Counted from the stretch's first letter, positions 21,030-46,055 are shown. The stretch: DNA of 64,000 bases from Gammaproteobacteria bacterium (GCA_004298065.1 SCRL01000006.1:28975-92974), one strand, 5' to 3'. The notes: generated from the letters alone by a model not told the origin. Numbers and translations: made by a program.

Positions 21030-21362
21030 ATGAAACCCGAACGCCGCGACACCCCGCGCATCCCGGTCGCGCTCGAAGCGATCGTCAGCACCTCGAAGAG
21101 CGGTTACCAGCGCACCGTGACGCGCGACGTGAGCCTCGACGGCGCGTTCGTGGTCACCGGCAAGCAGAAGGTCGGCAAGCGCAAGCCGGTGGAGGTCGCC
21201 CTGAAGTTGCCGTTCGACGGCGAGGAGAAGTTCCACCGCTTCCGCGCCCAGGTCGTGCGCACCGCCGGCGGCGGCAGCGGCGTGCTGTTCGAGGGCGTGG
21301 ATTCCGAGGCCTACGCGGCGCTGATGAACCTGGTGTTTTCGCGCCAGGCCAAGGCGCGTTAG
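21030..21362 (+). CDS. PilZ-domain protein (c-di-GMP receptor-like)
   Basis: 110 aa with an N-terminal RRDTPRIPV (RxxxR) and a DVSLDGAFV (D/NxSxxG) motif pair. Confidence 0.8.
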   Translation: MKPERRDTPRIPVALEAIVSTSKSGYQRTVTRDVSLDGAFVVTGKQKVGKRKPVEVALKLPFDGEEKFHRFRAQVVRTAGGGSGVLFEGVDSEAYAALMNLVFSRQAKAR

Positions 21363-21382
21363 TTCTTTATGTAAAATTACAA

Positions 21383-22198
21383 TCAGGTGCTCGGAAAGAA
21401 TACCGAAGACGATTTCTTGTTACTCAAGTAGTCAGTGGTGAAACGCTTTAAATAACGCATATCATCGAGAGTAACCTCGTTTTCCGATCGGACTTCGGCA
21501 TCAACTAATTGAATTCCACCGCATTTCCTAAATAGCTTTCCAAGCTGGTCGATTACGAGCTGTGCCTTAGTGCGTAGTGAAGCCTGCTTATAGAGATTCA
21601 CAGGCATTACTGCATATAGATTAACTTTGTACGACTCATCTTCACGCACATCTACATCATCCGGCTCGATTCCGATCAGGATTGCGCTGATTTCAGCACC
21701 CTCCCTATTAAGAATCGATTCAATATTGTCTTTCACCTGCTCTAAACGGTTGAGGAAAACATCTGGAAACGCACTACGGTTGTAACGCTGCGCCAACCAT
21801 GAGCGCAACAGAGATACACTTTCCGATGGAAGGTGCGATTGTGGATCAGGTGTAATAGTTTCTAAGATGCGGCGATCGATGTGGTACCGATCACTTGCAT
21901 GGCCGATAAAGCTTGTATCGCACCCATCCACACGAATTTGGAAATCGATTTCTCTCGGGCTCTTCCCGAAAGTGCGCCCACCTTTCTTCTCCGTTCTCGG
22001 ATAGACAACGAAAAGCTCGACGGTGGGTTCCTTTTCGTACGATCCGTTCGTGACATCGCAATCGTGGCTAACAACCACGATGGAAGCGTCTAAACGAAGA
22101 GAAGACCGGATATTCTCGTCTAGCTTTGCGTGGTCGGCTTGTCGAAGTACGGAACCTTGACGCCATCCGTTGCGGCCGATCGGGGTATCGATCGGCAT
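21383..22198 (-). CDS. hypothetical protein (271 aa), third gene of an AT-rich operon
   Basis: Protein-like composition. It starts 3 nt after the upstream gene's stop. No motif assignable; the notable stretch is IVVVSHDCDV. Confidence 0.7.
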   Translation of the reverse strand: MPIDTPIGRNGWRQGSVLRQADHAKLDENIRSSLRLDASIVVVSHDCDVTNGSYEKEPTVELFVVYPRTEKKGGRTFGKSPREIDFQIRVDGCDTSFIGHASDRYHIDRRILETITPDPQSHLPSESVSLLRSWLAQRYNRSAFPDVFLNRLEQVKDNIESILNREGAEISAILIGIEPDDVDVREDESYKVNLYAVMPVNLYKQASLRTKAQLVIDQLGKLFRKCGGIQLVDAEVRSENEVTLDDMRYLKRFTTDYLSNKKSSSVFFPST

Positions 22199-22201
22199 AA
22201 A

Positions 22202-22951
22202 CTACTCCTTGTCGTGGTCGGGAAAACTCACGAGTGGGGCAATGGTGTCGAGATTGGCCTGGAACTCCTCGTTTGATACTGGCCTGAAACCCTTGGCACG
22301 CATTCGCTCGGCGATTGATCTACGTTGACGGGCTTCGTGAGCCGCTGTCACAACCGTACACATTTGGCGCATAGCAACTCGTACGCGTTGGTCATCGACA
22401 ACTTCGGCGGAAAGCAAATCGCTCAGCGACTTGCCCTTATCCACCGGTTGCTGAATGTACTTACCAATTGGCCATGAACACGCTTGATTCCAGAAACTGG
22501 CCAATCGACTCAAATGATCTATTCGGCGCAAACTGTCTCTGCGAGGAATTTGGCCATCCATCCAGTCATAGATTGTTTGCCGCGATGTCTTTAAAAAGGC
22601 TCCCAAATCGGCAATTGATACTCCCAAGCTTGCTCGAATAAAAGCGATCGTTTCCTGTGCGGTGTGTAGGGCCGCTGGTTTTTCCACAACGTCAGGCATG
22701 ATAAACAACAGATCATCTTTGGCGGAAACGTAATCACTGGATAACAACGCAGCGCGGTAGATACTGCCACTCGCTGTCATCGTGATAGCCATTGGTTCAA
22801 GTGGATACCCGAACCATGCCATTATTTCCATGCAGGAACGGGGAGGCACTGGATTAGTAAAGCGCGCAGCGGTTGTCGACTCGTCGAACCATAACGGGTC
22901 AAGCAACGTGCTGCTTCCAGTTGATAGTGTATCTAGTGCCATTTGTTCCAT
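22202..22951 (-). CDS. HTH-domain protein (249 aa), second gene of the AT-rich operon
   Basis: Central HTH-like segment SIADLGAFLKTSRQTIYDWMDGQ. It overlaps the upstream gene by 19 nt, and the start could be a few codons later. Confidence 0.7.
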   Translation of the reverse strand: MEQMALDTLSTGSSTLLDPLWFDESTTAARFTNPVPPRSCMEIMAWFGYPLEPMAITMTASGSIYRAALLSSDYVSAKDDLLFIMPDVVEKPAALHTAQETIAFIRASLGVSIADLGAFLKTSRQTIYDWMDGQIPRRDSLRRIDHLSRLASFWNQACSWPIGKYIQQPVDKGKSLSDLLSAEVVDDQRVRVAMRQMCTVVTAAHEARQRRSIAERMRAKGFRPVSNEEFQANLDTIAPLVSFPDHDKE

Positions 22952-23727
22952 GCGTAATCCGTCACGATCGTTTTAAATGCTTCTGAACTTATGTCATGTA
23001 GCCGATTCAAACGGCTTGTTACATCTTCCACGTTAAACTCCGTGTCCACCTGCGAGTAATGGTCCGTATCTAGAATAGCCTTAGGACGACCATCGGGGTG
23101 AGTACGACATGGAGTAAGTGTATGGTCAGCGAGATCCGGTGGAAGAATGGCGCTGCTCTGGTCTTGACGAAAACGCAACGTAAGTACGCCTTCTGTAGTT
23201 TTGATCCTTGCAACGGTTTGCTGCTGTCCAGGATTGGGACTGATCTTCCCGAGTGGGAACCCCAACAGGCTCTCTGTTACATACTGACGAAGCTGTTCCC
23301 CTTCATCAGGAGATATAAGATCAATATATCGAATCCCCACGCGACTTGTTAGCGCGATGCGCAATTCTTCGTGGATTTGTATTAGCCCAAGCCGCAGTTT
23401 CTCAAGAAATTCCTCGAAGGTCGTATAGTCAGTTGTGTGATACGTAATCGCATCTTCCAAAACAACGAATCCAGACCTGTTGGCACGGTCGCTAAAATCC
23501 CAACGAGGACTCGTGACAACCTGCACAAATGGACCACCAGCTGCCATTGGAACAGCCGCCTCTTGGGGCTGGGTATGCTGAAACCGTGGGTAATTTTGGC
23601 GAAGCCGTTCCTGAATGTTTGGAATGTATTTTTCCCCCAGCTTTGTAATTGCGCTGAACCGAACTTGAGCAAGCACGTAGACAACTGGGGCGTTAGTTAG
23701 CCGCCCGATTTTGTTTGATTTGGTCAC
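22933..23727 (-). CDS. TIGR04255-family-like uncharacterised protein (264 aa), first gene of the AT-rich operon
   Basis: LTNAPVVYVLAQVRF at the N-terminus, VGIRYIDLI in the middle and ILDTDHY near the C-terminus match my recollection of TIGR04255 hallmarks. GTG start. Confidence 0.65.
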   Translation of the reverse strand: MTKSNKIGRLTNAPVVYVLAQVRFSAITKLGEKYIPNIQERLRQNYPRFQHTQPQEAAVPMAAGGPFVQVVTSPRWDFSDRANRSGFVVLEDAITYHTTDYTTFEEFLEKLRLGLIQIHEELRIALTSRVGIRYIDLISPDEGEQLRQYVTESLLGFPLGKISPNPGQQQTVARIKTTEGVLTLRFRQDQSSAILPPDLADHTLTPCRTHPDGRPKAILDTDHYSQVDTEFNVEDVTSRLNRLHDISSEAFKTIVTDYAWNKWH

Positions 23728-24007
23728 AAGTGTTTCCCGGTCGTTATGACTGGATAAGACTGAAAGAGGGATGTAAACAAGTTTACATCAAATTTGACAC
23801 TTGCAACGAGGACTCGTTCAATTAAATAAGTATTTGATAAATAATGATAATATATAAAATTTAACGGGTAACAAATAAGTTTTAGCCAAATAAGGCGCTA
23901 ACTTGTTGATTCGCCATTAGCCCAGATTTACCTACCACGGGCTAAAGTCTTTGCCATCGTCGAGACGGAACAATAAAGTTGTTCCGACTAAAACAAATGA
24001 GGTCAGC
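23728..24007. repeat. AT-rich non-coding block with same-orientation (A/C)AA(A)TAAG repeats; possible transposon-end or TnsB-site region
   Basis: Copies at 23824-23830, 23871-23879, 23887-23894, 23970-23978 (ACAATAAAG) and 23992-24000. There is also the palindrome ATGTAAAC-AA-GTTTACAT at 23771-23788. Confidence 0.4.
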
Positions 24008-25858
24008 TCAATCTCCGGTTCCTTGGCCTGAAACGAGCTCTTGAATAACTGAGTTAAGTCTCGGACTGAGCTCCTTACCTAAAAGTCTAGACAGGTGCTT
24101 CAACACCCAATCCTTTAGTGGCAACCCCCTATCCCTCGCCTGACTTGCTGCCGCTCGCAAACGCCTCTCACGTGAATCATCGAGCGACGGCTCGGAGTAT
24201 TCATTAAGAACTGCCCGGCAGAGTGGCAGGCGATCAAGATAAGAACATATCGATCGTGGAAGCCCCGATGCGTTGACTATGGTTACCGGAGTTACGCGTC
24301 GGGGTAGTTTCCATGCCTTAACTTTCTGGGCGGCCACTCTTAACACCTTGCTCCACTCCATGTCGCGTGCCTGCCAGTCGATCCGGTTGCTTGGCTTGCG
24401 CCTCGCACTTCCGAACTGTGGCTGGGCGAATAACCAATCCCTGTCCCAGCGCCGCAGCCTCTTGTAGAGGCTGCCGTTCATTTTGCGAGCAAGGACACGC
24501 CTTCGATTGGGCACCTGTACTAGCAGCTTCACCCACTCTTGCCTCCACTGTTCTATTAGGTTGCTCGAAACCTGGCTTGCGGGCGAATTCCCCGTAATAA
24601 GCTGTTTTGCAGTTTTAAAGGCGATGTCCAATTTCTTCGCGATTGCCCAGACGCTCAGACCGCTTCGCCGAAGCCGCTTCGCCTCGTGTACCCAGGTCGG
24701 CCCGAGTCCGCGTGTGCACCTCACGACCGGCAGGCTGGGGTCTACATCGGACGTGTGCGAAAACGTGAAGCAGTAACCGCAGCTGCACTTCGCGGAAGCC
24801 ACGAGTTCGCCCGAAGGTGAGACTCTAACCGATACCGATGTCCGTTTGATTGGAAGCCGTTCCTCGTGCGTTGCGTAAGGATTTGGGCACTTCCAGGGCC
24901 CAAGACCCAGGAACATCTTTTTCGAGGCATGAACCGGTAGGCTTTCGAGAAAGATCTGCATCAAGGCGTGTTGGAGCGAATGATACGAACGCGAATTGGA
25001 TCGACAACGAAAAATATTTCTGACCCAGTTCGCTTCGTTGCCTAGCTCGATCCCGCAACCCTGCCTTGAAAGCAGGGATTCGCCGTAAAACCCGACGAAG
25101 GCGCGTTCGATCCCCGCGGAAGATAACAAGGTCGCGCGGTTGGAGAAACCGCGTTCCAGGGCCGCCAGGCGGTAAACTTGCGGCACGTTTTCTCGCGGCC
25201 AAAGCGGTATGCACCCCGAAAGCATCTCTCGGCAACGCTTCGCTATCTTGAGGGCGTTCGCCGCCTCGGTCGTCCCGAGATCCGGGGCGTGCGCCGATGC
25301 GGTATCGGCCGTGACGTCCGTCGCGTCTATGAAATACGCCCTGAAGCTCGTCGGCTTCATCAGCGCGGTCGACTCGACGAGTGGGGTTCCGTGGTCCGGA
25401 CAAACGAGCACTCCGGGAATCTGGTGGGTCCGGCGCCAATATGTTTCTCCATGAAGGGACAGATCGTGTGCTCGACAGGTGGGACAAAAACGGAGAAATC
25501 TCGGGGTTCGGACACGACTTCCGTTCACGCCAAGCCGCGTGTGAACACCTACGCCGTTATCGGACCTCAATGCTCTGAGACACCGAGCGGCGCGCACGCC
25601 GGGCACATAGCGGGCGTAGTATGGAAACAGCGTCAACCGATCGGCGATCTCTTCCCCGGTCATGCCCCAAACCAGCCATGTCCGCTCGGATACCGCGTTC
25701 AATGAACTCGGCAAGTCTATGCTGGAAATCCTTATTCTCCTCCCGAAAACATCGGCCACCACAGCACCAGCCACCGAAGCGCCCGTTCGATTCAGATAAC
25801 GCGTGATGACGCTGTACAGGAGTTCGTCCGGATAAGGGGCGGGCAGGTGGCACAGCAT
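24008..25858 (-). CDS. tniQ: TniQ/TnsD-family target-selection protein
   Basis: The N-terminus MLCHLPAPYPDELLYSVITRY and the zinc-ribbon cysteines (CPTC ... CPDH) are typical of the TniQ domain. The long C-terminus has HTH-like segments, as in TnsD. Confidence 0.85.
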   Translation of the reverse strand: MLCHLPAPYPDELLYSVITRYLNRTGASVAGAVVADVFGRRIRISSIDLPSSLNAVSERTWLVWGMTGEEIADRLTLFPYYARYVPGVRAARCLRALRSDNGVGVHTRLGVNGSRVRTPRFLRFCPTCRAHDLSLHGETYWRRTHQIPGVLVCPDHGTPLVESTALMKPTSFRAYFIDATDVTADTASAHAPDLGTTEAANALKIAKRCREMLSGCIPLWPRENVPQVYRLAALERGFSNRATLLSSAGIERAFVGFYGESLLSRQGCGIELGNEANWVRNIFRCRSNSRSYHSLQHALMQIFLESLPVHASKKMFLGLGPWKCPNPYATHEERLPIKRTSVSVRVSPSGELVASAKCSCGYCFTFSHTSDVDPSLPVVRCTRGLGPTWVHEAKRLRRSGLSVWAIAKKLDIAFKTAKQLITGNSPASQVSSNLIEQWRQEWVKLLVQVPNRRRVLARKMNGSLYKRLRRWDRDWLFAQPQFGSARRKPSNRIDWQARDMEWSKVLRVAAQKVKAWKLPRRVTPVTIVNASGLPRSICSYLDRLPLCRAVLNEYSEPSLDDSRERRLRAAASQARDRGLPLKDWVLKHLSRLLGKELSPRLNSVIQELVSGQGTGD

Positions 25859-25859
25859 G

Positions 25860-27428
25860 TCACGCTACCTTTACATCGCGCTCGACAACGCAAGCCGAGG
25901 CCAGCGCATCCGCCGGGCTGACGCCGGAAGCAGCCGCCGACTCCACGATTTCCTTGAGGCTCTTGCTGGTTGTCTCCGCTTTTGATCCCCTGTCTTCATC
26001 CAACCCCTCAAGGATCATCCGCACGGCGGCGGCGCAGGTGAGGCCCGGGGTGGAGTCGAAAAGCGAGTTCACGGCTTCCTGTACACGGTCCTGCTCCAGC
26101 CCCGTCGCGATGAGCGCCGAGATCGTATTAAGCCGCTCTGCGGAACTCTGATTTCTCGACTGAGCCTGCGCCTTCAACAAGGAGAGTTTCGCCTCGCGAT
26201 CAACATCCTTGTCGAGCTTGATAAGCAGGTCCTCATAGTTCTTGATGGCCTCCTTGTTGCCCGCCCTGAGCGCCGCCAGCATCGGCGCGACCAGTTTAAA
26301 CATCCTTGATGCGACATCTTCGATCAGCGCCTCCGAGATGCACTCAGTGCCGTCGCCGATGGCCTGCATCTGCGTCAGCTGAAACAGCCTGACGACGAGG
26401 GCGTGGATTCCCTGGGTATGCTTGTACATGCAGGATTCGAGCGCCGGGGTCAACGACGCGACTTGCGCCGTCCACTGGTATTCCCAGAGCCTCCCCAGGA
26501 AATGCATCCACTCCTCACCTTTGGACAAGGCATCCCAGACGTAGGTGCCTTGGTCGCCGACGCGGCGCGCCTCACGGAAGGTTCTCTCGAGCAGGCCCAG
26601 CGCGCGCGGCGTGCCCACCGTCACGACGGGGATCTTCGCCTCGTTCGCGAAGGTCACGAAGAAGTTGAGCATCTTCGCCTGACCCACGCCGCTCGCGTCA
26701 AGAAGGTTTTGGATCTCGTCGATGACCAGAACCCCGAGGTGGTGCTGCGCGGCGATCTTGGCCACGTCGAGAATGAGTTCGTCGATGGTGCGGCTGCGAC
26801 CGATGGACTTGCGGTAAGAGGTTCCGAGCATGTCGTCGAACTTCGCGAGCATTCCGCGCAGCAGCTGCTTGAGGCTGCCATCCAAGGGGCAGTCGAGCTT
26901 CATCCAGACCACCTGCACGAAGCGATGCCTTTCATGCCGGACGATCTGCGGAAGGAACGAAAGCGCGCGCTCGACGACCGTCGACTTGCCCACGCCCGAC
27001 ACGCCGAAGAGCGCGAACGACGGCGCGGTGGACGGCGTCGAGTGGCCCAACGCGCGGATTTCTCCCGACATCGCGTCGCGGTAGAGACCCACCAGCCACC
27101 TCCGGTACCCGTCTTTCAAAGGATTGCGGTGCGTGTAGCCGGCCCTGACGATGAGGCCGATCTTCTCGATGACGTCGAGATGGCAGGGCAGCGGCTCCAA
27201 GTACGCGCCGAGCCGCGATATCGCGAGCATGCGCGCCGCCTTGGGAAGCTTGCGCTCGTCGTCGGTGATGCACGGATACCGTCCGAACTCGTGAATGAGT
27301 TCTCCGGCCTGACGGAACGGCGGCAGCGCCTCGATGAGGGGGTTGCCCACGTGCTCCGGCAAGTCCGCCGGCCGGTATTGCGCGTCGAGCATGTTGAACG
27401 GCACTTCGATCCGCGGTTTCTTAGCCAT
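25860..27428 (-). CDS. tnsC: TnsC-like AAA+ ATPase
   Basis: Walker A GVSGVGKST and Walker B LVIDEIQ. The position between tnsB and tniQ fits. The start at Met 27428 or 27452 overlaps the tnsB stop. Confidence 0.85.
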   Translation of the reverse strand: MAKKPRIEVPFNMLDAQYRPADLPEHVGNPLIEALPPFRQAGELIHEFGRYPCITDDERKLPKAARMLAISRLGAYLEPLPCHLDVIEKIGLIVRAGYTHRNPLKDGYRRWLVGLYRDAMSGEIRALGHSTPSTAPSFALFGVSGVGKSTVVERALSFLPQIVRHERHRFVQVVWMKLDCPLDGSLKQLLRGMLAKFDDMLGTSYRKSIGRSRTIDELILDVAKIAAQHHLGVLVIDEIQNLLDASGVGQAKMLNFFVTFANEAKIPVVTVGTPRALGLLERTFREARRVGDQGTYVWDALSKGEEWMHFLGRLWEYQWTAQVASLTPALESCMYKHTQGIHALVVRLFQLTQMQAIGDGTECISEALIEDVASRMFKLVAPMLAALRAGNKEAIKNYEDLLIKLDKDVDREAKLSLLKAQAQSRNQSSAERLNTISALIATGLEQDRVQEAVNSLFDSTPGLTCAAAVRMILEGLDEDRGSKAETTSKSLKEIVESAAASGVSPADALASACVVERDVKVA

Positions 27429-29616
27429 TTTGGCCTCCTTCGGGTTGCGCATCGCGCGTGCTTTTCAACAGCGCCAACGCGTTCTTGGATCGTTGGATAG
27501 CGAGGGATGATGTCTGCGCGGGCGGGTCCGGCGTGTCCGCGCCCCGGCCGCTTCCCGCCCCACCCAGGAAGAGCGTTTCCGCGCCGCGCTGGATTTCCTT
27601 TTCGTCGGCCCTGTTGTTTCGGATGTCTGACGTCCTTTTGGACTTCGGCGTATGCGCATCCGCCACGGCGCGCGTGGCCTTCCTCGCATTGGACTCGATC
27701 TCGGCCATGCGCTGGTCGATGAGCAGCCGCTTCGCCTGACGGTCGTTCTCGCCCGCGGCCTCGGCGCGCTTCGCGGCGAGCCCGAGTTCCTCGACCTCGA
27801 AGAGTGACTTGCCCCCGTAGACGGCGCTGGGGTCGAGCAGCCTGCACGGCTCGAAACCGCGGGGCAGCTTGGGACTGCGCAGGTAGACGTTCTCCATGTT
27901 TCGTGGGTCGAACGACACGTCGACCGTCCACTCGTCTCGCCGCGCCCTGGCGAACCAGTCCTCGCGCATCGCCGTGGGGCATGTGTAGTAGCCGTTCTTG
28001 AACTTGATGCCCTTCGCCGTCACGCGCGCGGTGTCCGAAGGCATCACGTTCAGCGACACTTCCTCGACGGTCAGCGTCTTGAGAAAGCCACTGCGGTTCA
28101 CAACACCCCACTCCCAGAGATCGATGGGCGCGGCCGACAGCCCGTCGGTCACCATGTCGGCCGGCAGACGCACGTCCCGGATGGGGGTGAAGTTGTGCTC
28201 GAGGACGGCGTAGATGACCAGCTGCGTGAACTCGTGCAGGTCGAGGGCGGCATCCAGCCGGTAGTCCCTCGATCCCCGTTCGTTGAAGTCCTTCTCGACG
28301 TAGCCCGGCGCGAACTGCCTGAACTTGGCCGGCACGATCCCGAACCGGCGCTCGACCATGGCCTTGAGGTCGGCCCGCCCCGGACTCGCGTTTTCGATAT
28401 CGATACCGAGCGACTTCACGATGTTCTCCGCGAGGGATACGCTGATAAGCTCGCCCCGGTCTCCCATAATGCGCCGGGGCGCGTAATGCGAGGGCCAGTC
28501 CGCCTCGACGATGTCGATGCCATGGCGCCGGCAGAACTCGACCTTCGGCGTGACCATGTTGACCAGCGCCATCATCGCCCCGGCCCACGAGGGACCCTCG
28601 AAGCCGACGTACACCCCCGTGATCAGGCGGCTGAAGACGTCGACGACGAAGTAGATGACGGGACGCCCGACGATCCGCCGACGGTCGAACTGCGAGACGA
28701 GATAGACGTCGGCGACGGTCGCGTCGATCTGGAAGCGGTCCCCGGGCCCCAGCACGTCGCCATCGGCCGCGCCGAGCAGCTCGCGTTCGTGCAGGTTCCA
28801 GTCCTTGTCGCCGTTACGCCGCCGTCGGATGTAACGATGCGGGAAGTGGGTGTCGATGTAGTACTGCAGTTGCCGAACCGTGGGCTTCGCGTCCGGCTCG
28901 ACCTCGAACGCCACCACCCGGTGGTTCTCGTCCTTGACGCGCCTGCAGAAGTAAAGGCCGACGATGTAGTCCAACGCCTCCCGCAGGGTCGGCTGCTTGC
29001 GCGACAGATAGAAGTCCGCGCCGACGCGCAGCATCCGGCGTATCTCCTCGGCGGCGGCGTTGATTCCAACTCCAGGGGTGACGGTGCGGGGCGCGCCGAC
29101 CTTCTTCTTGCCCGCGAGATCGCGCCGCTTGCCGGGCGATCCGCAGTTCGCGTAGTCGGTGCGTAGCGCCTCGAAGGTCATCCCCCGCTTCCAGTACAGC
29201 TTCAGCAGGGCGCAGATCGTCTGGCGTGTGCTCTTGATTTCCTCCAGCCGCTTCTCGATCAGCGCCTTGCGGTCACGCTTGTAGAGAAGATCGCGGGCGT
29301 TGTCGCTTCCAACGAGAGGCGCGATCAGCGCGTACCGCTGCTCGTGCCGCGTGGCGGCGGCACCGGTCTCGACCACGCGAACGCCCGGGCGCGCCCATGG
29401 ATCGTTCGGCTCCACGACGAAGCGGCCGTTCTCGGGGTCGAGCTCCTCCTGCAGCCGGTGCGACGGCATGGGATAGGGCCAGGAGTCGTCGTCCATGCGA
29501 CACAGCCAAGTGTGCCGCGTAGCGGGGTCGATAAAAACGATGCGCAGCAGCGCGTCCTGTTCGCGGTCCCTGACGAGCATCCGCTCGACGGGCAACACCG
29601 TGTGGTTCGTCGTCAT
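27421..29616 (-). CDS. tnsB: TnsB-like DDE (Mu-type) transposase
   Basis: About 730 aa with an rve-type core (RFQIDATVADV ... MGDRGE). The start at Met 29616 (MTTNHTVLP) forms an ATGA overlap with the tnsA stop. The ORF opening at 29772 is an over-extension. Confidence 0.88.
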   Translation of the reverse strand: MTTNHTVLPVERMLVRDREQDALLRIVFIDPATRHTWLCRMDDDSWPYPMPSHRLQEELDPENGRFVVEPNDPWARPGVRVVETGAAATRHEQRYALIAPLVGSDNARDLLYKRDRKALIEKRLEEIKSTRQTICALLKLYWKRGMTFEALRTDYANCGSPGKRRDLAGKKKVGAPRTVTPGVGINAAAEEIRRMLRVGADFYLSRKQPTLREALDYIVGLYFCRRVKDENHRVVAFEVEPDAKPTVRQLQYYIDTHFPHRYIRRRRNGDKDWNLHERELLGAADGDVLGPGDRFQIDATVADVYLVSQFDRRRIVGRPVIYFVVDVFSRLITGVYVGFEGPSWAGAMMALVNMVTPKVEFCRRHGIDIVEADWPSHYAPRRIMGDRGELISVSLAENIVKSLGIDIENASPGRADLKAMVERRFGIVPAKFRQFAPGYVEKDFNERGSRDYRLDAALDLHEFTQLVIYAVLEHNFTPIRDVRLPADMVTDGLSAAPIDLWEWGVVNRSGFLKTLTVEEVSLNVMPSDTARVTAKGIKFKNGYYTCPTAMREDWFARARRDEWTVDVSFDPRNMENVYLRSPKLPRGFEPCRLLDPSAVYGGKSLFEVEELGLAAKRAEAAGENDRQAKRLLIDQRMAEIESNARKATRAVADAHTPKSKRTSDIRNNRADEKEIQRGAETLFLGGAGSGRGADTPDPPAQTSSLAIQRSKNALALLKSTRDAQPEGGQNG

Positions 29617-30437
29617 GCCGCACCTCCTGATATAGAAAGGTCTCCGACCGGCAACTCCTGGATGAACCGCGCGCGAAGGTCCGCGCGGACTTGCTTCGTG
29701 CCCAGCAGCCGCCGTAGCGCCGCCAGCGCGATGCCGGGCCTGCGCCCGAGTTTTCCGTCGATCGCGCCGCACGCGATCCGGACTGGCGCATGCGGCCGTG
29801 CCTGCCGCTCCATGGCGAGCTCGCGATAAACGGCCATGTCGGCGCCGTCGTCAACGGTGTTTCCCGCATCCGGCTGGCCTGAATCCAAGATCCACGCGAG
29901 ATTCCGCGTGAAGGTGGTCTTGACCTCGCGGTCGGTGAGCACGCTCCACGGCACCTCGTGGCGTTCCCAATACCGCCGCTCTATCTCGAGCTTCTCGAGA
30001 GTCCGATCGTCGGCGAGCGCCTCGGCCTGCTTCACCGCATAGGCCGCGGTTTCGGTGCCCCGCGACGTGCGCCGGGTCAGAACCAAGTCGGTTGTCATCA
30101 CCCACAGCGCGCCGCTGATTGGGTCGACCGGATGGCGCACGTTGCACAGCGCCGCGATCTCGAGCGTCTCTCTCCGGTCGACGAGAGGAAATTGCTCACG
30201 GATGTCGACTACCTCGTCGTCCCACCATTGCAGGAGGAACGCGTAGTACTCGTTGTCGGAAAGCAGGTGATGCGTCCGACCGGTCTTCGGGCAGTAGACC
30301 CGGTGAACGCGCCCGAGCGACGGTACGTCGGCCACCGTCAGCCAGGGCTTGTAGCTCGCGCCCGTGCCCTTCCCGCGACCCTGCTTGATGAAGCGCAGGA
30401 TCTTCTGCTCAGTGAAACCGTATCGGCGTCTCGCCAT
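29613..30437 (-). CDS. tnsA: TnsA-like transposition endonuclease
   Basis: 274 aa. The N-terminal KQGRGKGTGASYKPWL and the LSDNEYYAFLLQWWDDEVVDIREQ restriction-endonuclease-like fold are typical of TnsA. Confidence 0.85.
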   Translation of the reverse strand: MARRRYGFTEQKILRFIKQGRGKGTGASYKPWLTVADVPSLGRVHRVYCPKTGRTHHLLSDNEYYAFLLQWWDDEVVDIREQFPLVDRRETLEIAALCNVRHPVDPISGALWVMTTDLVLTRRTSRGTETAAYAVKQAEALADDRTLEKLEIERRYWERHEVPWSVLTDREVKTTFTRNLAWILDSGQPDAGNTVDDGADMAVYRELAMERQARPHAPVRIACGAIDGKLGRRPGIALAALRRLLGTKQVRADLRARFIQELPVGDLSISGGAA

Positions 30438-30648
30438 AAATCCTCCTTAGATTCGCCTCGACGAGCGTTCGGCTTTCCTCGCTCGCGACATGCGTCGAGA
30501 TGACGTGGCAAGCGACCGCGTCGGTGACGCAGTAAACGATCGGCCGTTCGACGGACTTGGCGTCGCGCCCGGCCGCCACGAACGCATCGGCGCGAAAGGC
30601 CTCGATGCGGCAACGGGCGGCGCGGCGCGGAATCTGATTCGCGCGCAT
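30409..30648 (-). CDS. small hypothetical protein (79 aa) upstream of and overlapping tnsA
   Basis: A strong Shine-Dalgarno (AAGGAG) lies 6 nt before the ATG at 30648. The gene overlaps the tnsA start by 29 nt. No family recognised. Confidence 0.45.
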   Translation of the reverse strand: MRANQIPRRAARCRIEAFRADAFVAAGRDAKSVERPIVYCVTDAVACHVISTHVASEESRTLVEANLRRIYGETPIRFH

Positions 30649-31366
30649 GAGCACTCCTTCGCCGACGGGTCGGCGAAACATGAAAAAGGAAGGAGCTTGA
30701 CTGCGCGGGAGGCGTGGCGGATACTGATGTTGCTAGACAGTCGGTATCCACCGACCGCGCCCCTGGCGGCAAGCTCCGGTTTGTCGTTAGGGGTTTTTTA
30801 TTTCCCCCTCCAACCAACTCCAATCGTCGTTACTTCATATCTCCTCCTCGCGACAGATCGCGCGATATTTTAGGAATCGTCCGGCGACGGAACTGCTCGA
30901 AAAAACCCGGTAAAAACAGACTCCAAACGCCATGCACACACGCGCATCGCCGCGTGATTCAGCGGCCTTCCGGATCGGATTTGCATATTTTACTACAAGA
31001 CCGCGCGTTCCGAATAATGCGAAGCGCGTTTTCTCGTGCATGTCTTCACACGCATGAGAAATGACGTGCGACGTTATTCCATAGAGATTAGGTCTTCGTC
31101 CGTCGTTGTCGCGAGATCGATTCGCGCGATGTTTTCGCGCGCGACCGTCAACATGTACAGAATGTGTACCGGTTGAGTTTTTGTTAACCGGTCACAAAAA
31201 ATAAACGGCGCCCCCGACGGGACAAGCGGGTTGCGTGCTCACCTGCATGAGCAGCAATTGACCGGCCACCGTCACGCGCATACCCTCATCCGCATGACCA
31301 AGCTCCGGATGACAACACTCCGAGCGCGGCGCGAGATCGTGTTGGCCGCCCCGGATCAGATTCTTC

Positions 31367-31822
31367 ATGGCGTATATGCGTAACCGCACGCGCCAGATCG
31401 TGCTCGGCACGGAGGGCGAGTTCGAGATGTACGGCCTGACGCTGCGGGGCGCCGGGAACGTGGACCCCGCGTCGCCTGTGTGCCTGCCGCTTGAGCGCGC
31501 CCTGGCGCGGCTCCTTCCCATCCTCGAAACGCTCTGGAAGCTCGACCGCGCCACCCAGGCGAGGCTTCTCAAGGTGCGCCCGTCCACCCTGGAGCGTTAC
31601 CGCCGCGGCCAGTCCGTCCCGCGCAGGCGCGAGCAGCTCGAACGTATCGCGGACCTGACTCGCATCTACGCGGCCCTGCGCGTCCTCCTGCCGCGCCCCG
31701 AGGCCGCGGACGCGTGGCCCACGCGTTCCAACACGCGCTTTCGCCCCAACCCCGTCGCCTACATGAAGCGCCACGGGATAAAGGGCGTGGAGCGCTACCT
31801 GTGGGCGGAACTGGCGGGGTAG
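31367..31822 (+). CDS. Xre-type antitoxin with DUF2384 (ParS/MbcA-like) C-terminal domain
   Basis: HTH-like LDRATQARLLKVRPSTLERYRRG, followed by AADAWPTRSNTRFRPNPVAYMKRHGIKGVERYLW, which resembles the DUF2384 toxin-binding domain. No RES-domain partner follows. Confidence 0.6.
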   Translation: MAYMRNRTRQIVLGTEGEFEMYGLTLRGAGNVDPASPVCLPLERALARLLPILETLWKLDRATQARLLKVRPSTLERYRRGQSVPRRREQLERIADLTRIYAALRVLLPRPEAADAWPTRSNTRFRPNPVAYMKRHGIKGVERYLWAELAG

Positions 31823-31849
31823 TGAGGCGATGTACACGGTGGTCGTGAT

Positions 31850-32424
31850 ATGAAGCTCTCCGAACTGGTGGCCTCCGTCGGCTGGGCCGAGGCGCGGGCC
31901 TCACTCCTTTGGAGTTACTCGGACGTGGAGAAATCCATCGAGGGCTACCGGCGGGTGTTCGATTCCCTGCGAAGACTGAAGCCGGCCGCCTCGACCATGC
32001 GGCTCGTCGTCCACCGGACCTTCCGGGAAGAACTCGACGACGCCCCCTTCGCTCAGGTGAGCGGGCGAAACGGGACGCGCAACCGGGACAAGCGGACTTC
32101 AAGCACCTCGGCCAGTCCGCCGATCCGGACTACGCCGATGCGGAAACGAACTTCTCGCTTGCGTTCGAGCCTTGGGAGCAGTGGCTCGGCATGGACATCG
32201 ATCCGCAGACGCTTCGAGACTACACGCCCGCGCAGATCATGGCGCACTGCCTGTGGGAGATGACCTTCCACGGCTTCGAGCAGTCCGAGATCCAGGCCGA
32301 GCGCGACGAGATCAAACGGCGCGTCGAGGAACTCGATTCCATGACCGAGGAGGAGCGCAGGAAACGCCTCATTCCCTGGGAGCAGGTGAAGAAGGACCTG
32401 CTGGGCGACCAAGAGCAGGAGTGA
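31850..32424 (+). pseudogene. frameshifted gene of unknown function
   Basis: The N-terminal half is in the frame of ORF 31850..32263. The convincing C-terminal half (FSLAFEPWEQWLGMDIDPQTLRDYTPAQIMAHCLWEMTFHGFEQSEIQ...) is in the frame of ORF 31909..32424. The frame switch lies near 32085-32100. Confidence 0.6.
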
Positions 32425-32432
32425 ACCGACCG

Positions 32433-33119
32433 ATGCGCCACAAACCGAAACGCAGCCGAACGACACGTCGGGTCGCCAGGAAAACGCCGGCCTACGAGCG
32501 GGACGACGGACCGCTGACTGAAGAGCAGATCGCAGCGATCAAGAAGCTCGTGCCGCAGGGGCGCGGCATGAGGATTGCGTCGTCCTGTTTCCGGACGAGA
32601 CGGCGCGGACAGGCGGTCGCACCGGAAAGCGGCGCGGGAAATGATACGCATCGGGTTGAATGGAACCATGACCAGGAAAATCACCAGACACACCAAGACG
32701 CCGTGCGCGAAGAGGGGCGGCAAGGGGTGGAAAGCTTTCCAGGCGATGCTGGACCGGCCGGCCCGCCGCAATCCGAAGCTCGCGCGGCTTCTCAAGACCA
32801 AGGCCCTGTGGGACTAAAACTACGCAATGGCATTTCGATGAGAAAGCGCGAGACAACCAACCGCCGCGGGAAAGAAGCGACGCAACGCCGGCCGAGGAAG
32901 CGGGCCGACAGCCAGCCGATCGCGAAGCAGATCGCAGCGATCCAAAGGCTGGCGGCCGCAGGGCTGCGGCAGGGCGGCAGCGTCGTCCTCGTTTCCGAAC
33001 GGACCGAACCGGGGGACGCCGCAGGGTCAAGCACCGGCATCCTTCGTAAGGCGGGTGGTTTTGCCCGTGCCCGCCGAGCTATACGCAAGTTAACCCAGGT
33101 TATCGTCCTAGGCGTATAA
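32433..33119 (+). pseudogene. tandemly duplicated, partly frameshifted small basic ORFs
   Basis: Two units start at 32433 (MRHKPKRSRTT...EEQIAAIKKL) and 32838 (MRKRETTNRR...AKQIAAIQRL). They share identical 16-mers about 402 nt apart, and unit 1 carries a 1-nt indel relative to unit 2. Confidence 0.4.
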
Positions 33120-33218
33120 ATGGGTAACTTCCGTATAAATGCGGATCGGTCCTCCGGCGGCTGGCCAACGGTGCGCACGACGAGGACCTGGGGCAATACG
33201 CTCACTGACGGAGACGCC

Positions 33219-33572
33219 ATGTTCACGATCACGGCACGAAAGCCCTCAAGCCCCGGGGAAATCCTCAAGGAGGAATTCATGGCGCCGGCGGGCCTGACCC
33301 AGGAAGGGCTTGCCGATGCTATCCACGTCGAGCGTCGCTGGATAAACGAGATCGTCGGCGACAAGCGCGGGATCACACCGGACACGGCGATACGCCTGGG
33401 CCGCTACTTCGGCGTGAGCGCGCGGTTCTGGATGAACCTGCAGGCGCGCCACAACCTCTGGCATGTTCTGGCGGAGCGCAGGAAGGAGTACGAGCGTATC
33501 AAGCCGCACAAGGCAAGGCTGGCATATCGGCCCGTAATGCGGAAGAAACTCCATGGGCGCGGGCGTTCATGA
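33219..33572 (+). CDS. higA: HigA-family antitoxin (HTH), apparently orphan
   Basis: PGEILKEEFMAPAGLTQEGLADAIHVERRWINEIVGDKRGITPDTAIRLGRYFGVSARFWMNLQ is a typical HigA/VapI HTH. No intact HigB ORF lies upstream. Confidence 0.8.
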   Translation: MFTITARKPSSPGEILKEEFMAPAGLTQEGLADAIHVERRWINEIVGDKRGITPDTAIRLGRYFGVSARFWMNLQARHNLWHVLAERRKEYERIKPHKARLAYRPVMRKKLHGRGRS

Positions 33573-33575
33573 AAA

Positions 33576-33607
33576 GAAACGGCGGCCAACCCCTTGGCCG
33601 CCGTTTC
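33576..33607. terminator. stable hairpin (14-bp perfect stem) after higA
   Basis: GAAACGGCGGCCAA-CCCC-TTGGCCGCCGTTTC. The U-tract is weak on the plus strand, while a TTTT run follows on the minus strand. Confidence 0.55.
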
Positions 33608-33972
33608 CTCGCCGCGCTCCACGGCAACACCCCCTGTGTTCAGATCATCGGGCGCGGGTGACGGACGAAGGTTATAACACGGCCGTCCATTCTGTGTTGT
33701 AACTCCGGCCACCCGTGGCATTATCCCTCTCACCCATGCCAAGCTTCACAGCTCAGCACTTCCACTTCGGCACCTAGCGGACCCGAAGCAAAGATGTCCC
33801 TGCCTGGGATGGCCTTGAGGACTTCTTCTGCATGGATACATATGACGTGATGCCGGACCGGTAATGCGCAGAAAGCGCCAGTTGCATCAGTCCCACGCTC
33901 GGCGTCTGATGCGCGGCGGCCAGGAGACGCGGGGCGCCTCTGGATCCACCGGCCTCGACCGGGGGGTTCGGT

Positions 33973-34350
33973 TCAGGGGAATACACCGTTCGGCCCGCGG
34001 TGGTAAATCAAGTCCTCCACGGGCTGTCCGCCGACGAAATGCTCGCGGATGATCCGGTCCAGGTTCGCCTCGGTCACGTTGTAATACCAGATGCCATCCG
34101 GTTGCACGCAGACGATCGGCCCGGATTTGCAGGTGGCGAAGCAGTACGTGCGGGTGCGTTTGACACGTTGTTCGCCTTGATCGAGACCGGCTGCCTTGAA
34201 TTTCTCGCCGAGGCCGTCGAACAACGCCTGGGATTCGCCGTTCTCCGTGCAGCGCGGGCCGACGCAGACCAGCAGGTGGCGTTTGTAAGGCTGCATTTTC
34301 GGTTTTGCGATCTCCACCGGGATCGCGCCGACAGGCCCGGCGTCAGACAT
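33973..34350 (-). CDS. thioredoxin-like [2Fe-2S] ferredoxin, last gene of the cobalamin operon
   Basis: The cysteine pattern LLVCVGPRC ... CFATCKSGP is typical of the thioredoxin-like ferredoxin family. It overlaps the preceding cbiH gene by 8 nt. Confidence 0.75.
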   Translation of the reverse strand: MSDAGPVGAIPVEIAKPKMQPYKRHLLVCVGPRCTENGESQALFDGLGEKFKAAGLDQGEQRVKRTRTYCFATCKSGPIVCVQPDGIWYYNVTEANLDRIIREHFVGGQPVEDLIYHRGPNGVFP

Positions 34351-35287
34351 CCTTACTCTCCTCGTTCCGAACCGACTCGATCTCGATTACCGGCAGATCG
34401 AAATGACGGGCGATCGCCTCCGACGACTCGCCGCGCAACAGGCGTTCGCGCACGCTCATCTTCCAGCCGTCCAGCCCGTGGCTGAGCGAACGCCCGGCCT
34501 GTTCGCCTGCCAGCGTCTCGCCGGTGACGCCATCGTATTTATTGGCATAACCGCGCGGCGTAATCATCAGGCCGTCCTGCATGAAGGTGTTGCTGTTGCC
34601 GACCAGCACGGTGGTGAGCATGCCGATCTCGCAGTCGGCCATCTGCGCGAGGCGCGTCATCTGGATGGATTGTTTTTTGCGGTACGCCGATTTGACCACC
34701 GCGACCGGTGTGTCCGGCGCGCGGTGCCGCAGCAGGATGCGTTGCGCCTCGACGATCTGCTGCGTGCGCCGCCCGCTCTTGGGGTTGTAAAGCGCGATCA
34801 CGAAGTCCGCGCGCGCCGCGGCGTCCAGCCGGCGCGCGATCACCGGCCAGGGCGTGAGCAGGTCGGAGAGCGAGATCGAGCAGAAGTCGTGGGTGAGTGG
34901 CGCACCGACCAAGGCCGCGCACGCCGAAAGCGCCGTGGTGCCCGGGACCGCCTCGACCTCGATGCCGTCGCCGGGATGCCAGCCGGATTGCAGCAACACC
35001 TCATACGTGGGTCCGGCCATGCCGTAGACGCCGATGTCGCCCGACGAGATCAGTGCCACGATCCGGCCCTGGCGCGCGCGGTCGTACGCCTCGGTGCAGC
35101 GATCGAGCTCTTCCGTCATGCCCTTGCGTATCACTTCCTTGCCGTCCAGCAAGTCTTGTACCAGCTTGATGTAGGTCGAGTAGCCGATGACGACATCAGC
35201 CTCGGCGATGGCGGCGCGTGCGCGGAAGCTCATGTGCTCCTGCGCGCCGGGCCCGAAGCCCACCAGATATATTTTTCCATTACTCAT
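34343..35287 (-). CDS. cbiH: precorrin-3B / cobalt-factor III C17-methyltransferase
   Basis: GFGPG tetrapyrrole methylase N-terminus, SSGDIGVYGMAG, and a roughly 60-aa C-terminal extension. Confidence 0.88.
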   Translation of the reverse strand: MSNGKIYLVGFGPGAQEHMSFRARAAIAEADVVIGYSTYIKLVQDLLDGKEVIRKGMTEELDRCTEAYDRARQGRIVALISSGDIGVYGMAGPTYEVLLQSGWHPGDGIEVEAVPGTTALSACAALVGAPLTHDFCSISLSDLLTPWPVIARRLDAAARADFVIALYNPKSGRRTQQIVEAQRILLRHRAPDTPVAVVKSAYRKKQSIQMTRLAQMADCEIGMLTTVLVGNSNTFMQDGLMITPRGYANKYDGVTGETLAGEQAGRSLSHGLDGWKMSVRERLLRGESSEAIARHFDLPVIEIESVRNEESKDV

Positions 35288-35678
35288 TTCCTGTCCTCAC
35301 GATGGAAACCGTGGCGTTCCTGCCGTCCGCGCCGCGGTGTTTGTGTTTCTCGACCAGCAGATGTTTGAGCCCGGCATGCGCCGCGAGCAGCGCGGCCGCC
35401 TCGGCCACCGCCGGCGTGCCCATGTACTTCAATACCGTCGCGGAGGGATTCGGCACAGGCACCTTCGCCAGTTCCTCCGCGCTGAAAAAATGCAGCGGCC
35501 AGTTCCAGCGCGCGGCCAGCATCAGGATGCATGCCTCGTCGCTCTTCTTGTCGATGGTCGCCAGTCCCTGCACCGCCACCCGGTCGAGGCCGGCCAGCTT
35601 CAGCGCCTGATCCACGGCGGTCTCCAGCGTTTCGAGCGGCGTGCCGCGATCGCAACCCACGCCCAATAACACGCGCAT
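35280..35678 (-). CDS. CbiG C-terminal / CobE-like domain protein
   Basis: MRVLLGVGCDRGTP ... VLKYMGTPAVAEAAAL matches the CobE/CbiG C-terminal domain. ATGA overlap with the upstream gene. Confidence 0.8.
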   Translation of the reverse strand: MRVLLGVGCDRGTPLETLETAVDQALKLAGLDRVAVQGLATIDKKSDEACILMLAARWNWPLHFFSAEELAKVPVPNPSATVLKYMGTPAVAEAAALLAAHAGLKHLLVEKHKHRGADGRNATVSIVRTGNE

Positions 35679-36424
35679 CAGTCCTGGCCCTCTGGCGGCC
35701 GGTAGACCACCAGACGCTCGTGCAATTGTTGCCATAGCGCCGCGGTTATCTCGCGGCGCGTCACCCACAGCACGGCGCGAAAGTCTTCGAGCTTCACGTC
35801 ATCGAAGCGTTCGAAGAGATGGATGTTGCGCGGCAGGGCGGTCGGTCGCGTCCACCATTTTGTCGAGCCCGCCTCCTGCACGAAGGCGACCGGCTCGCCG
35901 TTGACCACGTGCGCCGAGACGCGCGTGATATTGATCTTAGGCGCCTCGACCCGCCATCCGAGTTCGCGCCCGAGAATATCGACAGGGACGGTCTTGCCGA
36001 CGTCGGAGGCGGTGGTCAGCACCGCCGTCGCGCCGAGCAGTGCGGCGATTGTCTCGGCGCAGGCGTTGGCGCCGCCGACGTGGCCGGAGAGCACCGGGAT
36101 GACGAAGCGCGCGGCGTCGTCCACCACCAGCACGCCCGGGTCTTCGTCCTTCGATTTGAGATGTGGCGCGATAAGCCGCACGACGGCGCCGAGCGAAACG
36201 AAAAACACGATCTGATCGTAGACCGCGAACAGTTGGGCGATTTGGGCGCTGAGGGCGCCGGCATACGGCTTCACTGCATTCGGTACATCTCCAAGCCGCG
36301 CGGCGAATTTCTCCGCGACGATCACGTCCGCCGCTGGCAGCCGGGGCGCGAGTTTTTCCAGCAGCGAGGAGCCGTGTTTGGTGATGGCCACCAGCGCCAC
36401 GCGCGCTTGTCCGGGGATACTCAC
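35678..36424 (-). CDS. cbiG: cobalamin biosynthesis protein CbiG (N-terminal and middle domains)
   Basis: LVAITKHGS ... VVDDAARFVIPVLSGHVGGANA is typical of CbiG. Confidence 0.85.
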   Translation of the reverse strand: MSIPGQARVALVAITKHGSSLLEKLAPRLPAADVIVAEKFAARLGDVPNAVKPYAGALSAQIAQLFAVYDQIVFFVSLGAVVRLIAPHLKSKDEDPGVLVVDDAARFVIPVLSGHVGGANACAETIAALLGATAVLTTASDVGKTVPVDILGRELGWRVEAPKINITRVSAHVVNGEPVAFVQEAGSTKWWTRPTALPRNIHLFERFDDVKLEDFRAVLWVTRREITAALWQQLHERLVVYRPPEGQD

Positions 36425-37200
36425 GCGTTTTCCCCGGCGGATTTCTTGCGGCAGCCGCGTTGCAGCGCGCCACGTGGCCGATCCGGATTGCGCACCAGCA
36501 GCAGCGAGAGGTAGTTTACTTTCTCGCCGCGCAGCCGCGCCACGTCGCGCACCACGCGCTCCTCGGGCGTGCCGACCTTTTCGAGAAAGCAGCTCTTGGC
36601 GAGCAGACCGCGGCGTACGAGCAGGTCGATCAGGTCGTCGAGCAGCGGCTTGACCTTGAGCAACACGAGCGTGTCGAACTCCGGTAACAGCCGCTCGACG
36701 GTGTCTACGCCGTAGCCGGCGGGCAGGATCGCGAGCGTTTCGTCGCTCTCGGCGAGCGGCTCCCCCAGGTGCGCGGCGGAGGCGTGGTACGAGGGTACAC
36801 CGGCGATCGTCTCCACCTCGATATCGCCGTCGAGCGCGCGAATGCTGCGCACGAGATAGGTGAAGGTGGAATAAGTGGAGGCATCGCCCTCGACCAGGAA
36901 CGTCACGTCGCGGCCGGTGGCCAGGATATCGAGCGCGGTCTGCGCCGCTTGCAGCCAGTAGCGCGCCAGGATTGCCGTGTCATGGGTCATGGGAAAGACC
37001 AGCGGCGTGTGCGCCGCGGGCAGGCTCAACCCCGCGCGTCGGACGATGTCGAGCGCGTAACTGCTGTCGCCCTGGCGGCGCACCGGATAGGTCCAGTGCG
37101 CCGGACCCTGCAGGGCCTCCCAGGCGCGGCGCGTGATGAGTCCCGGATCGCCGGGTCCCAGCGATACTCCCATCAGCCTGCCTTTTTGCGGGATACTCAT
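36421..37200 (-). CDS. cbiL: precorrin-2 / cobalt-factor II C20-methyltransferase
   Basis: GVSLGPGDPGLIT methylase N-terminus. The start at Met 37200 forms an ATGA overlap with the upstream stop. Confidence 0.88.
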   Translation of the reverse strand: MSIPQKGRLMGVSLGPGDPGLITRRAWEALQGPAHWTYPVRRQGDSSYALDIVRRAGLSLPAAHTPLVFPMTHDTAILARYWLQAAQTALDILATGRDVTFLVEGDASTYSTFTYLVRSIRALDGDIEVETIAGVPSYHASAAHLGEPLAESDETLAILPAGYGVDTVERLLPEFDTLVLLKVKPLLDDLIDLLVRRGLLAKSCFLEKVGTPEERVVRDVARLRGEKVNYLSLLLVRNPDRPRGALQRGCRKKSAGENA

Positions 37201-39586: not shown

Positions 39587-39599
39587 GGCTGGGGCGTCC

Positions 39600-41140: not shown

Positions 41141-41186
41141 GATGCCTCCTTCCCATTGCGCAAGGCACGCATCCGGGCCGTGTCCG

Positions 41187-42685: not shown

Positions 42686-42708
42686 GGTCGTCTCCTTGTG
42701 AAAGAGGA

Positions 42709-43497: not shown

Positions 43498-43505
43498 GCT
43501 CGGCC

Positions 43506-44159: not shown

Positions 44160-44180
44160 GACGATCTCCTCTGGGTGATT

Positions 44181-45995: not shown

Positions 45996-46055
45996 AAGCT
46001 TTACTAAAGATGCGCCGAGTCTATGCCGCGGGTGGCAAGCTGTCAAAACCCTGCA

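Follow-up and report, generated by a model that had tools for sequence, protein, structure and literature searches.

The genes of a Tn7-like transposition machinery raise the question of where the element that carries them begins and ends, into which site it was inserted, and whether it is still an intact unit. We addressed this question for the tnsA-tnsB-tnsC-tnsD (tnsABCD) locus in a 64,000-nucleotide stretch of DNA (the window) from an uncultured gammaproteobacterium (Gammaproteobacteria bacterium, GCA_004298065.1, SCRL01000006.1:28975-92974), whose UvrD is nearest (76%) to the UvrD of a Sulfurifustaceae metagenome-assembled genome. Comparison with related genomes indicates that the segment 23861-31196 is probably a 7,336-bp intact member of the prototypic Tn7 family, located in the gap between glmS and pilZ that is the attTn7 site of the host family. 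Read from its right end (R1) to its left end (L1), the element comprises a small antisense-type RNA unit, a 79-codon open reading frame (ORF), tnsA, tnsB, tnsC and tnsD (Table 1); it holds no internal cargo, and its content is limited to tnsABCD, the 79-codon ORF and ~750 bp of non-coding DNA. The element is a well-preserved mobile element of an ordinary kind, a new member of the already known Tn7 type, and leaves existing knowledge of how Tn7 works unchanged. Its anatomy, the intactness of its catalytic motifs, purifying selection on its genes, the positions of both ends, the empty-site allele and the stacked structure of the surrounding interval are established, while glmS is strongly suggested, by inference, to be the target of TnsD.

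Table 1. Features from pilZ to glmS in order of position; glmS and R_X, beyond the window end, are given in window-equivalent positions.
Feature	Position	Strand	Remarks
pilZ	21030..21362	+	host gene, fixed left flank of the whole interval; Pfam PilZ, E 5e-11; convergent with glmS
three-ORF low-GC block	21365..23860	-	2,496 bp, outside L1
o271	21383-22198	-	three-ORF block
o249	22202-22951	-	three-ORF block; weak helix-turn-helix
o264	22933-23727	-	three-ORF block; TIGR04255 protein, E 3e-50
promoter/operator region of three-ORF block	23728-23860		palindrome GATGTAAAC..GTTTACATC
L1, left end	23861..24007	+	147-bp block abutting the tnsD stop; homology with five diverged copies stops there
TnsB-type sites of L1	23868-23881, 23884-23896, 23967-23980, 23989-24002		four, dispersed, pointing inward
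tnsD	24008-25858	-	616-aa target selector; TniQ zinc-finger N-terminus and TnsD domain
tnsC	25860-27428	-	522-aa AAA+ regulator; Pfam TniB/AAA_22
tnsB	27421-29616	-	731-aa DDE transposase; Pfam Mu-transpos_C
tnsA	29613-30437	-	274-aa endonuclease; Pfam Tn7_TnsA-like_N and C domains
79-codon ORF (MRANQIPRR...)	30409..30648	-	overlaps the tnsA start; called as a gene in L102-L109
small RNA-like transcription unit	30697..30805	+	divergent from and antisense to the tnsA leader; from promoter and terminator scans
R1, right end	31100..31210	-	tip TGTGACCGGTTAACAAAAAC from 31196 reading leftwards, inside a near-palindrome of ~24 nt
decayed toxin-antitoxin remnants	31367..33572	+	between R1 and the cobalamin operon; include duplicated basic ORFs (NCBIfam, Pfam)
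Xre/ParS-type antitoxin	31367-31822	+
frameshifted DUF6557 gene	31850-32424	+
HigA antitoxin	33120-33572	+
segment of high GC at third codon positions (GC3)	33973..62367		cobalamin operon, then PAS-kinase, GGDEF-EAL, phospholipase C and GmrSD-like genes (Pfam)
L_X, candidate left end	62597..62690	+	TGCGG tip as at R_X; two inward sites (ATAATAAAATT, ACAATAACGTT); at a GC3 change
R_X, second Tn7-type right end	74069		abuts glmS, 25 nt after its stop
glmS	74094-75920	-	same contig and strand as the tns genes; ~10 kb beyond the window end

A preliminary description of the region, made from the sequence alone, had reported tnsA, tnsB, tnsC and a 616-aa TniQ/TnsD-like gene in canonical order on the minus strand, and Pfam indeed finds four consecutive genes between 24008 and 30437. 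The gene junctions it had pointed out are both present, namely an ATGA overlap of tnsA and tnsB at 29613-29616 and an 8-nt overlap of tnsB and tnsC at 27421-27428, with AAGGAGG upstream of the tnsC ATG; gene order and overlapping junctions are as in Tn7 of Escherichia coli, which combines TnsABC and TnsD with attTn7. All four proteins find their Tn7 counterparts in the PDB. TnsA matches 1f1z (expectation value, E, 3e-50), with E63, D117 and the lysine of a YAVK motif aligned with E63, D114 and K132 of the Tn7 protein; TnsB matches 7pik over 650 residues (E 4e-103), with D298, D386 and E422 in the motifs IDAT, DRGE and VE; TnsC matches Tn7 TnsC (E 1e-69), with Walker A (GVSGVGKST) and Walker B (LVIDEIQ) aligned with the Tn7 motifs; and the N-terminus of TnsD matches 8glu (E 1e-24), both zinc-finger halves (CPxC/CPxH motifs) being aligned. 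The TnsD protein is further identified by the Pfam families TnsD (1.8e-55) and TniQ (3.5e-22). The three acidic residues of TnsB, which we take to be the equivalents of D273, D361 and E396 of Tn7, are invariant among five relatives (alignment A1). Inactivating mutations of catalytic residues, which the preliminary description had named as a finding that would refute its reading, are not present, the motifs of TnsA, TnsB and TnsC being intact in comparison with Tn7. Everything that marks a Tn7-family element at the protein level is in place, and the characteristic ends and target duplication are readable in part.

The element was compared with diverged copies 79-86% identical to the window (L021, L105/L106, L107, L108 and L109), gathered via protein searches and contig look-ups, and with near-identical copies (L102-L104, 98%). 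All four tns genes are open in five diverged copies and evolve with ratios of nonsynonymous to synonymous substitution rates (dN/dS) of 0.16-0.29 at a dS of 0.4-1.6. For tnsD, dN/dS is 0.19-0.22, and its dS of 1.2-1.6 is two to three times that of tnsABC in the same copy pairs (0.4-0.7). Because of this higher dS and of the lower GC content of tnsD (55-60% at 24008-25858 versus 64-67% for tnsABC at 25860-30437), the data suggest that the selector module has been exchanged separately from tnsABC and has a history of its own. There is no second tns gene set in the genome and no resolvase gene in the tnsABCD element, in which, unlike in Tn5053/Tn402, TnsA is present and intact. No Cas families occur among the Pfam hits, a general repeat search of 20900-34500, which did not include a tandem-repeat search, reported no CRISPR-like repeat array, and the whole region has no match in a plasmid collection.

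The ends of the element, which the preliminary description had considered unreadable, become readable through comparison with the diverged copies. Searches for repeats within the region gave no convincing inverted termini because the ends are too degenerate to be recognized without such comparison. Homology to the window covers 30862 to 23861/23867 and a second stretch of ~45 nt at 31156-31211, and in L021, L105, L108 and L109 it stops at R1, beyond which three unrelated flank types follow. We place R1 at 31196 and L1 at 23861-24007 because homology to the diverged copies breaks at 23861 and at ~31196-31210, where other DNA follows, because R1 and L1 form an inverted repeat, and because the left tip of L105, TGTTAACGG, is the same as that found on the right of an Acidithiobacillus element beside glmS (L041). 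The inverted repeat is imperfect and clearest in L109, where TGTG followed by AACCGGTTAACAAAAAC faces GACT followed by AACCGGT-AACAAATAAG; beyond the first four bases, R1 and L1 agree at about 15 of 17 positions. The position 31196 had been guessed as the right end before, and the guess proved right: R1 starts there on the minus strand with TGTGACCGGTTAAC, and the string that reads leftwards from it is TGTGACCGGTTAACAAAAACTC. In element orientation the right tip is (T)TGTGAACCGGTTAACAAAAAC in every copy, with a one-base deletion in the window and TGCG in L021. The palindrome noticed at this place is also real, and together with the right-end string it has been kept in five diverged copies; an operator role, previously put forward instead, could coexist with that of an end.

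On the left, the AT-rich block after tnsD does carry TnsB-type sites, as had been proposed, and the homology break delimits L1 within it. The five (A/C)AA(A)TAAG copies described there were all found, four of them inside L1 (23871, 23887, 23970 and 23992), whereas the copy at 23824 lies outside L1 in DNA that sister genomes possess without any transposon. In every copy the left end closes with ...ACTTATTTGT(T/C)ACC(C/G/T)G(T/A)TA directly after the tnsD stop. The tip itself reads (AT)TTAACGGG in the window versus TGTTAACGGG in L105, and its first bases are TGT in L105, ATT (ATT/TTT) in the window, AGT in L102 and ACT in L021, L107 and L109. A metagenome scan for the R1 tip returned chance matches only. 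The pattern TGTSACCGGTT gave false leads, among them a plus-strand match at 15947 inside an unrelated restriction-modification cassette and a match at 16885 of L035, whose true ends resemble TGTC(A/T)GAAAATTGGA.

The genes around the element point to its attachment site. In one genome of the host family (G005), glmS and pilZ are convergent with stop codons 14 nt apart, and in others the two genes are separated by 10 kb (G004), 6.5 kb (G003) or 2.9 kb (G011). In the genome studied here, the natural interval extends from the pilZ stop (21362) to the glmS stop (74094) and measures 52,731 bp. The preliminary description had delimited a single island of ~12.5 kb (21363-33970) flanked by the PilZ gene and the cobalamin operon. 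It is not one island, because 21363 and 33970 are both internal joints of the pilZ-glmS interval, and the cobalamin operon lies within that interval and does not flank it. The alignment to related genomes without the island, which had been proposed as a check, was carried out and gave the empty site: in the sister genomes L116-L118, found by looking up the first ORF, the order is glmU, glmS, 150 nt, o264, o249, o271, pilZ, uvrD, with no transposon. Relative to L116, window 23865-74069 (50,205 bp) is an insertion that starts 25 nt after the glmS stop. Placed on the empty allele, both of its junctions fall 17-25 nt past that stop. This allele reads GTCGAGTAG-GCGGCCCCCAGTCTTTAATTTTAT followed by ATATTATC..., while the glmS side of the window reads ...AATTTTATC-TGCGGACAATTAAGTT and the pilZ side ...TTGTTACCCGTTAA-ATTTTATATATTATC, so that AATTTTAT (up to 8 nt, with room for a 5-bp duplication) stands on both sides of the outer pair R_X/L1.

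An insertion that starts 23-25 nt after the glmS stop has the known geometry of Tn7 (PMC2918618). The orientation also fits Tn7, because the tnsA-proximal end faces glmS. The flank of L1 agrees with the empty allele, and the junction has the canonical spacing from glmS; the unit that ends in L1 therefore appears to have entered, by Tn7-type transposition, a site that already held the three-ORF block, and the glmS attTn7 site is strongly suggested to be the attachment site of the element. By homology to Tn7, TnsD would bind the conserved 3' coding end of glmS and recruit TnsC, whereupon TnsA and TnsB would excise the element and insert it ~25 nt downstream of the glmS stop, its tnsA-proximal end towards glmS. 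Here the gap has grown from ~14 nt to 52.7 kb, through insertion events whose order we infer.

Several observations weigh against an intact glmS-directed element bounded by R1 and L1. On the side of the target, the nearest TnsD relatives outside the host group do not lie beside glmS, no common attachment gene emerged next to the nearest non-host relatives (TnsB 45-67% identical), and no copy with R1 directly beside glmS was found in the close family; in the window R1 is now 42.9 kb from glmS. On the side of the ends, no consistent clean 5-bp duplication surrounds R1/L1 in any of six copies, in agreement with the failure of the preliminary description to find one for the tns unit. R1 has one clear TnsB-type site plus weak ones and no clear repeated-site array, and the strict L1 site motif recurs within 56 kb only at R_X and not at R1. 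Moreover, the 14 nt (GCnGTTTATTTTT) outside the TGTG of R1 are conserved in all three otherwise unrelated flank groups. Because of these outer nucleotides and the location of the tip inside the ~24-nt near-palindrome, the right terminus is placed only approximately, and the tip region could double as an operator. Finally, the terminal TGT is missing from the L1 tip in six of seven copies, only L105 keeping it. Mutation of the terminal TGT/ACA has been reported to immobilize an element (PMC11014353), a finding that bears on the mutated L1 tip of the window; the present-day mobility of the window copy is uncertain because this tip has no terminal TGT.

Every copy abuts pilZ, and this gene was therefore considered as the attachment gene. 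We rejected it, as pilZ lies at the tnsD-side end, a tnsD remnant stands between the intact element and pilZ in L108, and the empty-site allele puts the junction at the canonical distance from glmS.

From glmS to pilZ the interval contains R_X with defence cargo of the cyclic oligonucleotide-based antiphage signalling system (CBASS) and SMC types, then cyclic di-GMP (c-di-GMP) signalling genes and the cobalamin operon, toxin-antitoxin debris, the tnsABCD element, and the older three-ORF block. With two Tn7-type end sets but one tns gene set, it is a stacked attTn7 island. R_X consists of three packed sites (GACAATTAAGTT, GACAATAGAATT and GACAACAAAGTT) with the tip TGCGG. Together with L_X, for which no target duplication was found, it tentatively delimits a second, tns-less Tn7-type element of 11.5 kb (62597-74069; G000:C33 about 91571-103043). 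The preliminary description had left the choice between an intact element and an immobilized one within a stack of successive insertions. The stack fits best, in view of the two end sets and the single tns set; immobilization is not borne out, since none of the four genes is disrupted, purifying selection acts on all of them, and damage is apparent only at the first two bases of the left tip.

Two histories could have produced this arrangement. In the first, the 7.3-kb element would have arrived first and later DNA would have been inserted between it and glmS; in the second, a pre-assembled 50-kb composite would have moved in a single step with R_X and L1 as its ends. In its full form the second history makes the whole 50.2 kb (23865 to window-equivalent 74069) one large Tn7-type transposon with R_X and L1 as working ends, in which the tns operon lies, unusually, at the left-end side, the cobalamin, signalling and defence genes are cargo between the right end and tnsA, and R1 is an internal relic or operator. 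We consider this unlikely. In its favour are the canonical, packed right end 25 nt after glmS and a target duplication of up to 8 nt at R_X and L1 in comparison with the empty allele; insertions that recurred at a fixed attTn7 position would, however, give rise to this duplication again. Further points in its favour are that, over 56 kb, an inverted counterpart of the strict TnsB-site motif of L1 is seen only at R_X; that the same 14 nt always follow R1 on its outer side, with variable DNA beyond, as at a border between core and cargo; that the 98%-identical L102 shares at least the part from the cobalamin operon to L1, with a different L1 flank; and that the cobalamin methylase was not found (no match at E<=1e-30) in 12 family genomes, in a search that had no positive control. 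However, R1 and L1 are clear inverted repeats; only the 7.3-kb stretch from R1 to L1 has been preserved in different lineages, with wholly different DNA upstream of R1; and more distant relatives, for example L035, have their right end less than 1 kb from tnsA. Against a single unit also stand the candidate L_X at 62597, which makes R_X the end of a separate 11.5-kb element, and the R_X tip TGCGG, which looks internally shortened relative to the left tip of L105. There is only a slim chance that the 50.2 kb between R_X and L1 are a single, still mobilizable Tn7-type transposon that carries a complete anaerobic cobalamin operon, c-di-GMP genes and a CBASS-type defence and that moved whole into an attTn7 site with the three-ORF block.

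Very unlikely, in our view, is that the element is a vertically inherited resident which is no longer mobile, whose end flanks differ through ordinary deletions and unrelated insertions and whose genes are kept for another host benefit or have not yet decayed: every copy found does adjoin pilZ in related gammaproteobacterial contexts, most left tips lack TGT, no target duplication is readable for R1/L1, and the window, L102 and L105 have identical pilZ junction bases (GCGCGTTAGT), but the dN/dS values of the four genes argue for selection on the transposition proteins, the transposase is absent from 42 of 42 other species genomes of the host family and so is not a fixed family trait, the window agrees with the empty allele beside L1, a duplication lying at the canonical glmS distance as in a real insertion, and the sequences found next to L1 are of five kinds (pilZ at two positions, the three-ORF block, a helicase gene and a tnsD remnant).

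The reading as a 7.3-kb Tn7-family element within a stack can be set beside known systems. Tn7 and the window element share, besides the conserved catalytic and nucleotide-binding motifs, end sites of the ACAA(A)TAAG type, packed or dispersed, and a location downstream of glmS with the tnsA-proximal end towards glmS, the outer junctions of the 50.2-kb insertion mapping ~25 nt after the stop. Unlike Tn7, the window element has no tnsE, internal cargo or integron; its TnsD has 616 aa; its right tip, TGTGA(A)CCGG, lies in a palindrome of ~24 nt with no obvious four-site array, and its left tip has no TGT; it is separated from glmS by other insertions and has a conserved antisense-type unit upstream of tnsA. 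The glmS gene is also the neighbour of Tn7-like elements in Acidithiobacillus (L041), Rhodocyclus (L064) and Pseudomonas (L099), whose TnsB proteins are 35-38% identical to that of the window and whose right ends lie 23-25 nt after the glmS stop (23 nt in L041). These elements still touch glmS and have three to four regularly spaced, near-identical right-end sites, whereas R1 of the window does not.

The stack as a whole resembles the Tn6022/AbaR islands at comM of Acinetobacter (PMC11014353), which likewise have, at a single attachment site, several Tn7-type ends but a smaller number of transposase sets, have flanking modules that vary between close strains, and carry defence or resistance cargo. 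It differs from them in that its attachment gene is glmS and not comM, in that the window has no TnsF/TnsE partner, and in that its contents include a complete cobalamin operon and signalling genes, with a codon bias like that of the host. Tn6022 shows strong target immunity (PMC11014353); by analogy, stacking at the present site would imply ends of different specificity or ends that have decayed.

Closely related uncultured gammaproteobacteria provide three natural alleles of one attTn7 site, namely the block alone, the block plus 50 kb, and the same tns locus abutting pilZ without the block (the L102 type, whose glmS side is unseen). Together they show a Tn7 landing site growing into a 50-kb accessory region with genes for vitamin B12 synthesis and defence. 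In addition, a compact, cargo-free Tn7 relative with defined ends is a candidate tool for site-specific insertion in high-GC hosts.

On the pilZ side, where the uvrD-pilZ pair is kept across the host family, the content of the slot next to the left end varies. The three-ORF block, which has no PADLOC match, is the sole content of the glmS-pilZ gap in L116-L118 (99.2% identity) and is absent from L102-L104, where window 23861 joins 21364 directly and L1 runs straight into the pilZ stop; the L102 allele is probably the product of a later deletion from the L1 tip to the pilZ stop, with a TT microhomology at the joint. In L105 the same slot (8187-12545) holds a gene for a 1,452-aa AAA_11/AAA_12 helicase that matches the candidate defence families PDC-S37 and Mokosh MkoA/C, in L108 it holds the remnant of a decayed tnsD, and in L021 and L107 there is nothing between the left end and pilZ, which reads into the left end. 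Just past the pilZ stop of the window, an 11-mer at 21381-21391 (ACAATCAGGTG) that overlaps the o271 stop matches the L021/L107-type left tip ACTATCAGGTG at 10 of 11 positions. It was considered as a relic of an older left end and left unexplained; no TnsB sites follow it.

Upstream of tnsA, the small RNA-like unit has a sigma-70-like promoter, TTGACT-17-GATACT (30697-30725), followed by a short hairpin and by a terminator at 30759-30794 with a 16-bp stem and a T run, giving a predicted transcript of ~70 nt. It has no Rfam match, and it is the best-conserved non-coding part of the element, being 91-98% identical in copies that are ~79% identical overall. From its position and conservation, the unit may be an antisense regulator of the transposase, and the near-invariant 70-nt antisense-type RNA and the 24-nt palindrome of R1 may together form a previously undescribed control circuit of tnsA in this Tn7 lineage. 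The coding status of the neighbouring 79-codon ORF, which has no match in Pfam or NCBIfam, is uncertain; because its dN/dS is 0.46-0.97 with a low dS, constraint at the nucleotide level may account for its conservation.

The DNA between R1 and glmS is heterogeneous. The segment 33973-62367 has host-like GC3 and is wholly absent between glmS and pilZ in L116-L118; its cobalamin operon extends from 33973 to ~46000, with ferredoxin and methylase genes at the 3' end. As the operon lies inside the 50.2 kb missing from the empty allele and its methylase is unmatched in the 12 family genomes, it may have been acquired horizontally. A segment of lower GC3 next to R_X (64177-73181) encodes an M78 peptidase, a SMODS nucleotidyltransferase, a patatin and an SMC-like ATPase of ~1,000 aa, the nucleotidyltransferase and the patatin forming a predicted CBASS-like pair. 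Between 31197 and 34000 the window differs from L102 by five 1-2-nt indels. The frame of the DUF6557 gene is broken, with a 137-aa ORF versus the 191-aa gene called in L102, and one of these indels, of one base, maps near 32085-32100. Among other relatives, L111 (1-8599) and L113/L115, with TnsB proteins 60-67% identical to that of the window, carry two TnsD/TniQ paralogues, and upstream of tnsA they hold defence islands (Wadjet JetABCD, a Lamassu LmuB fragment) or remnants of other transposons.

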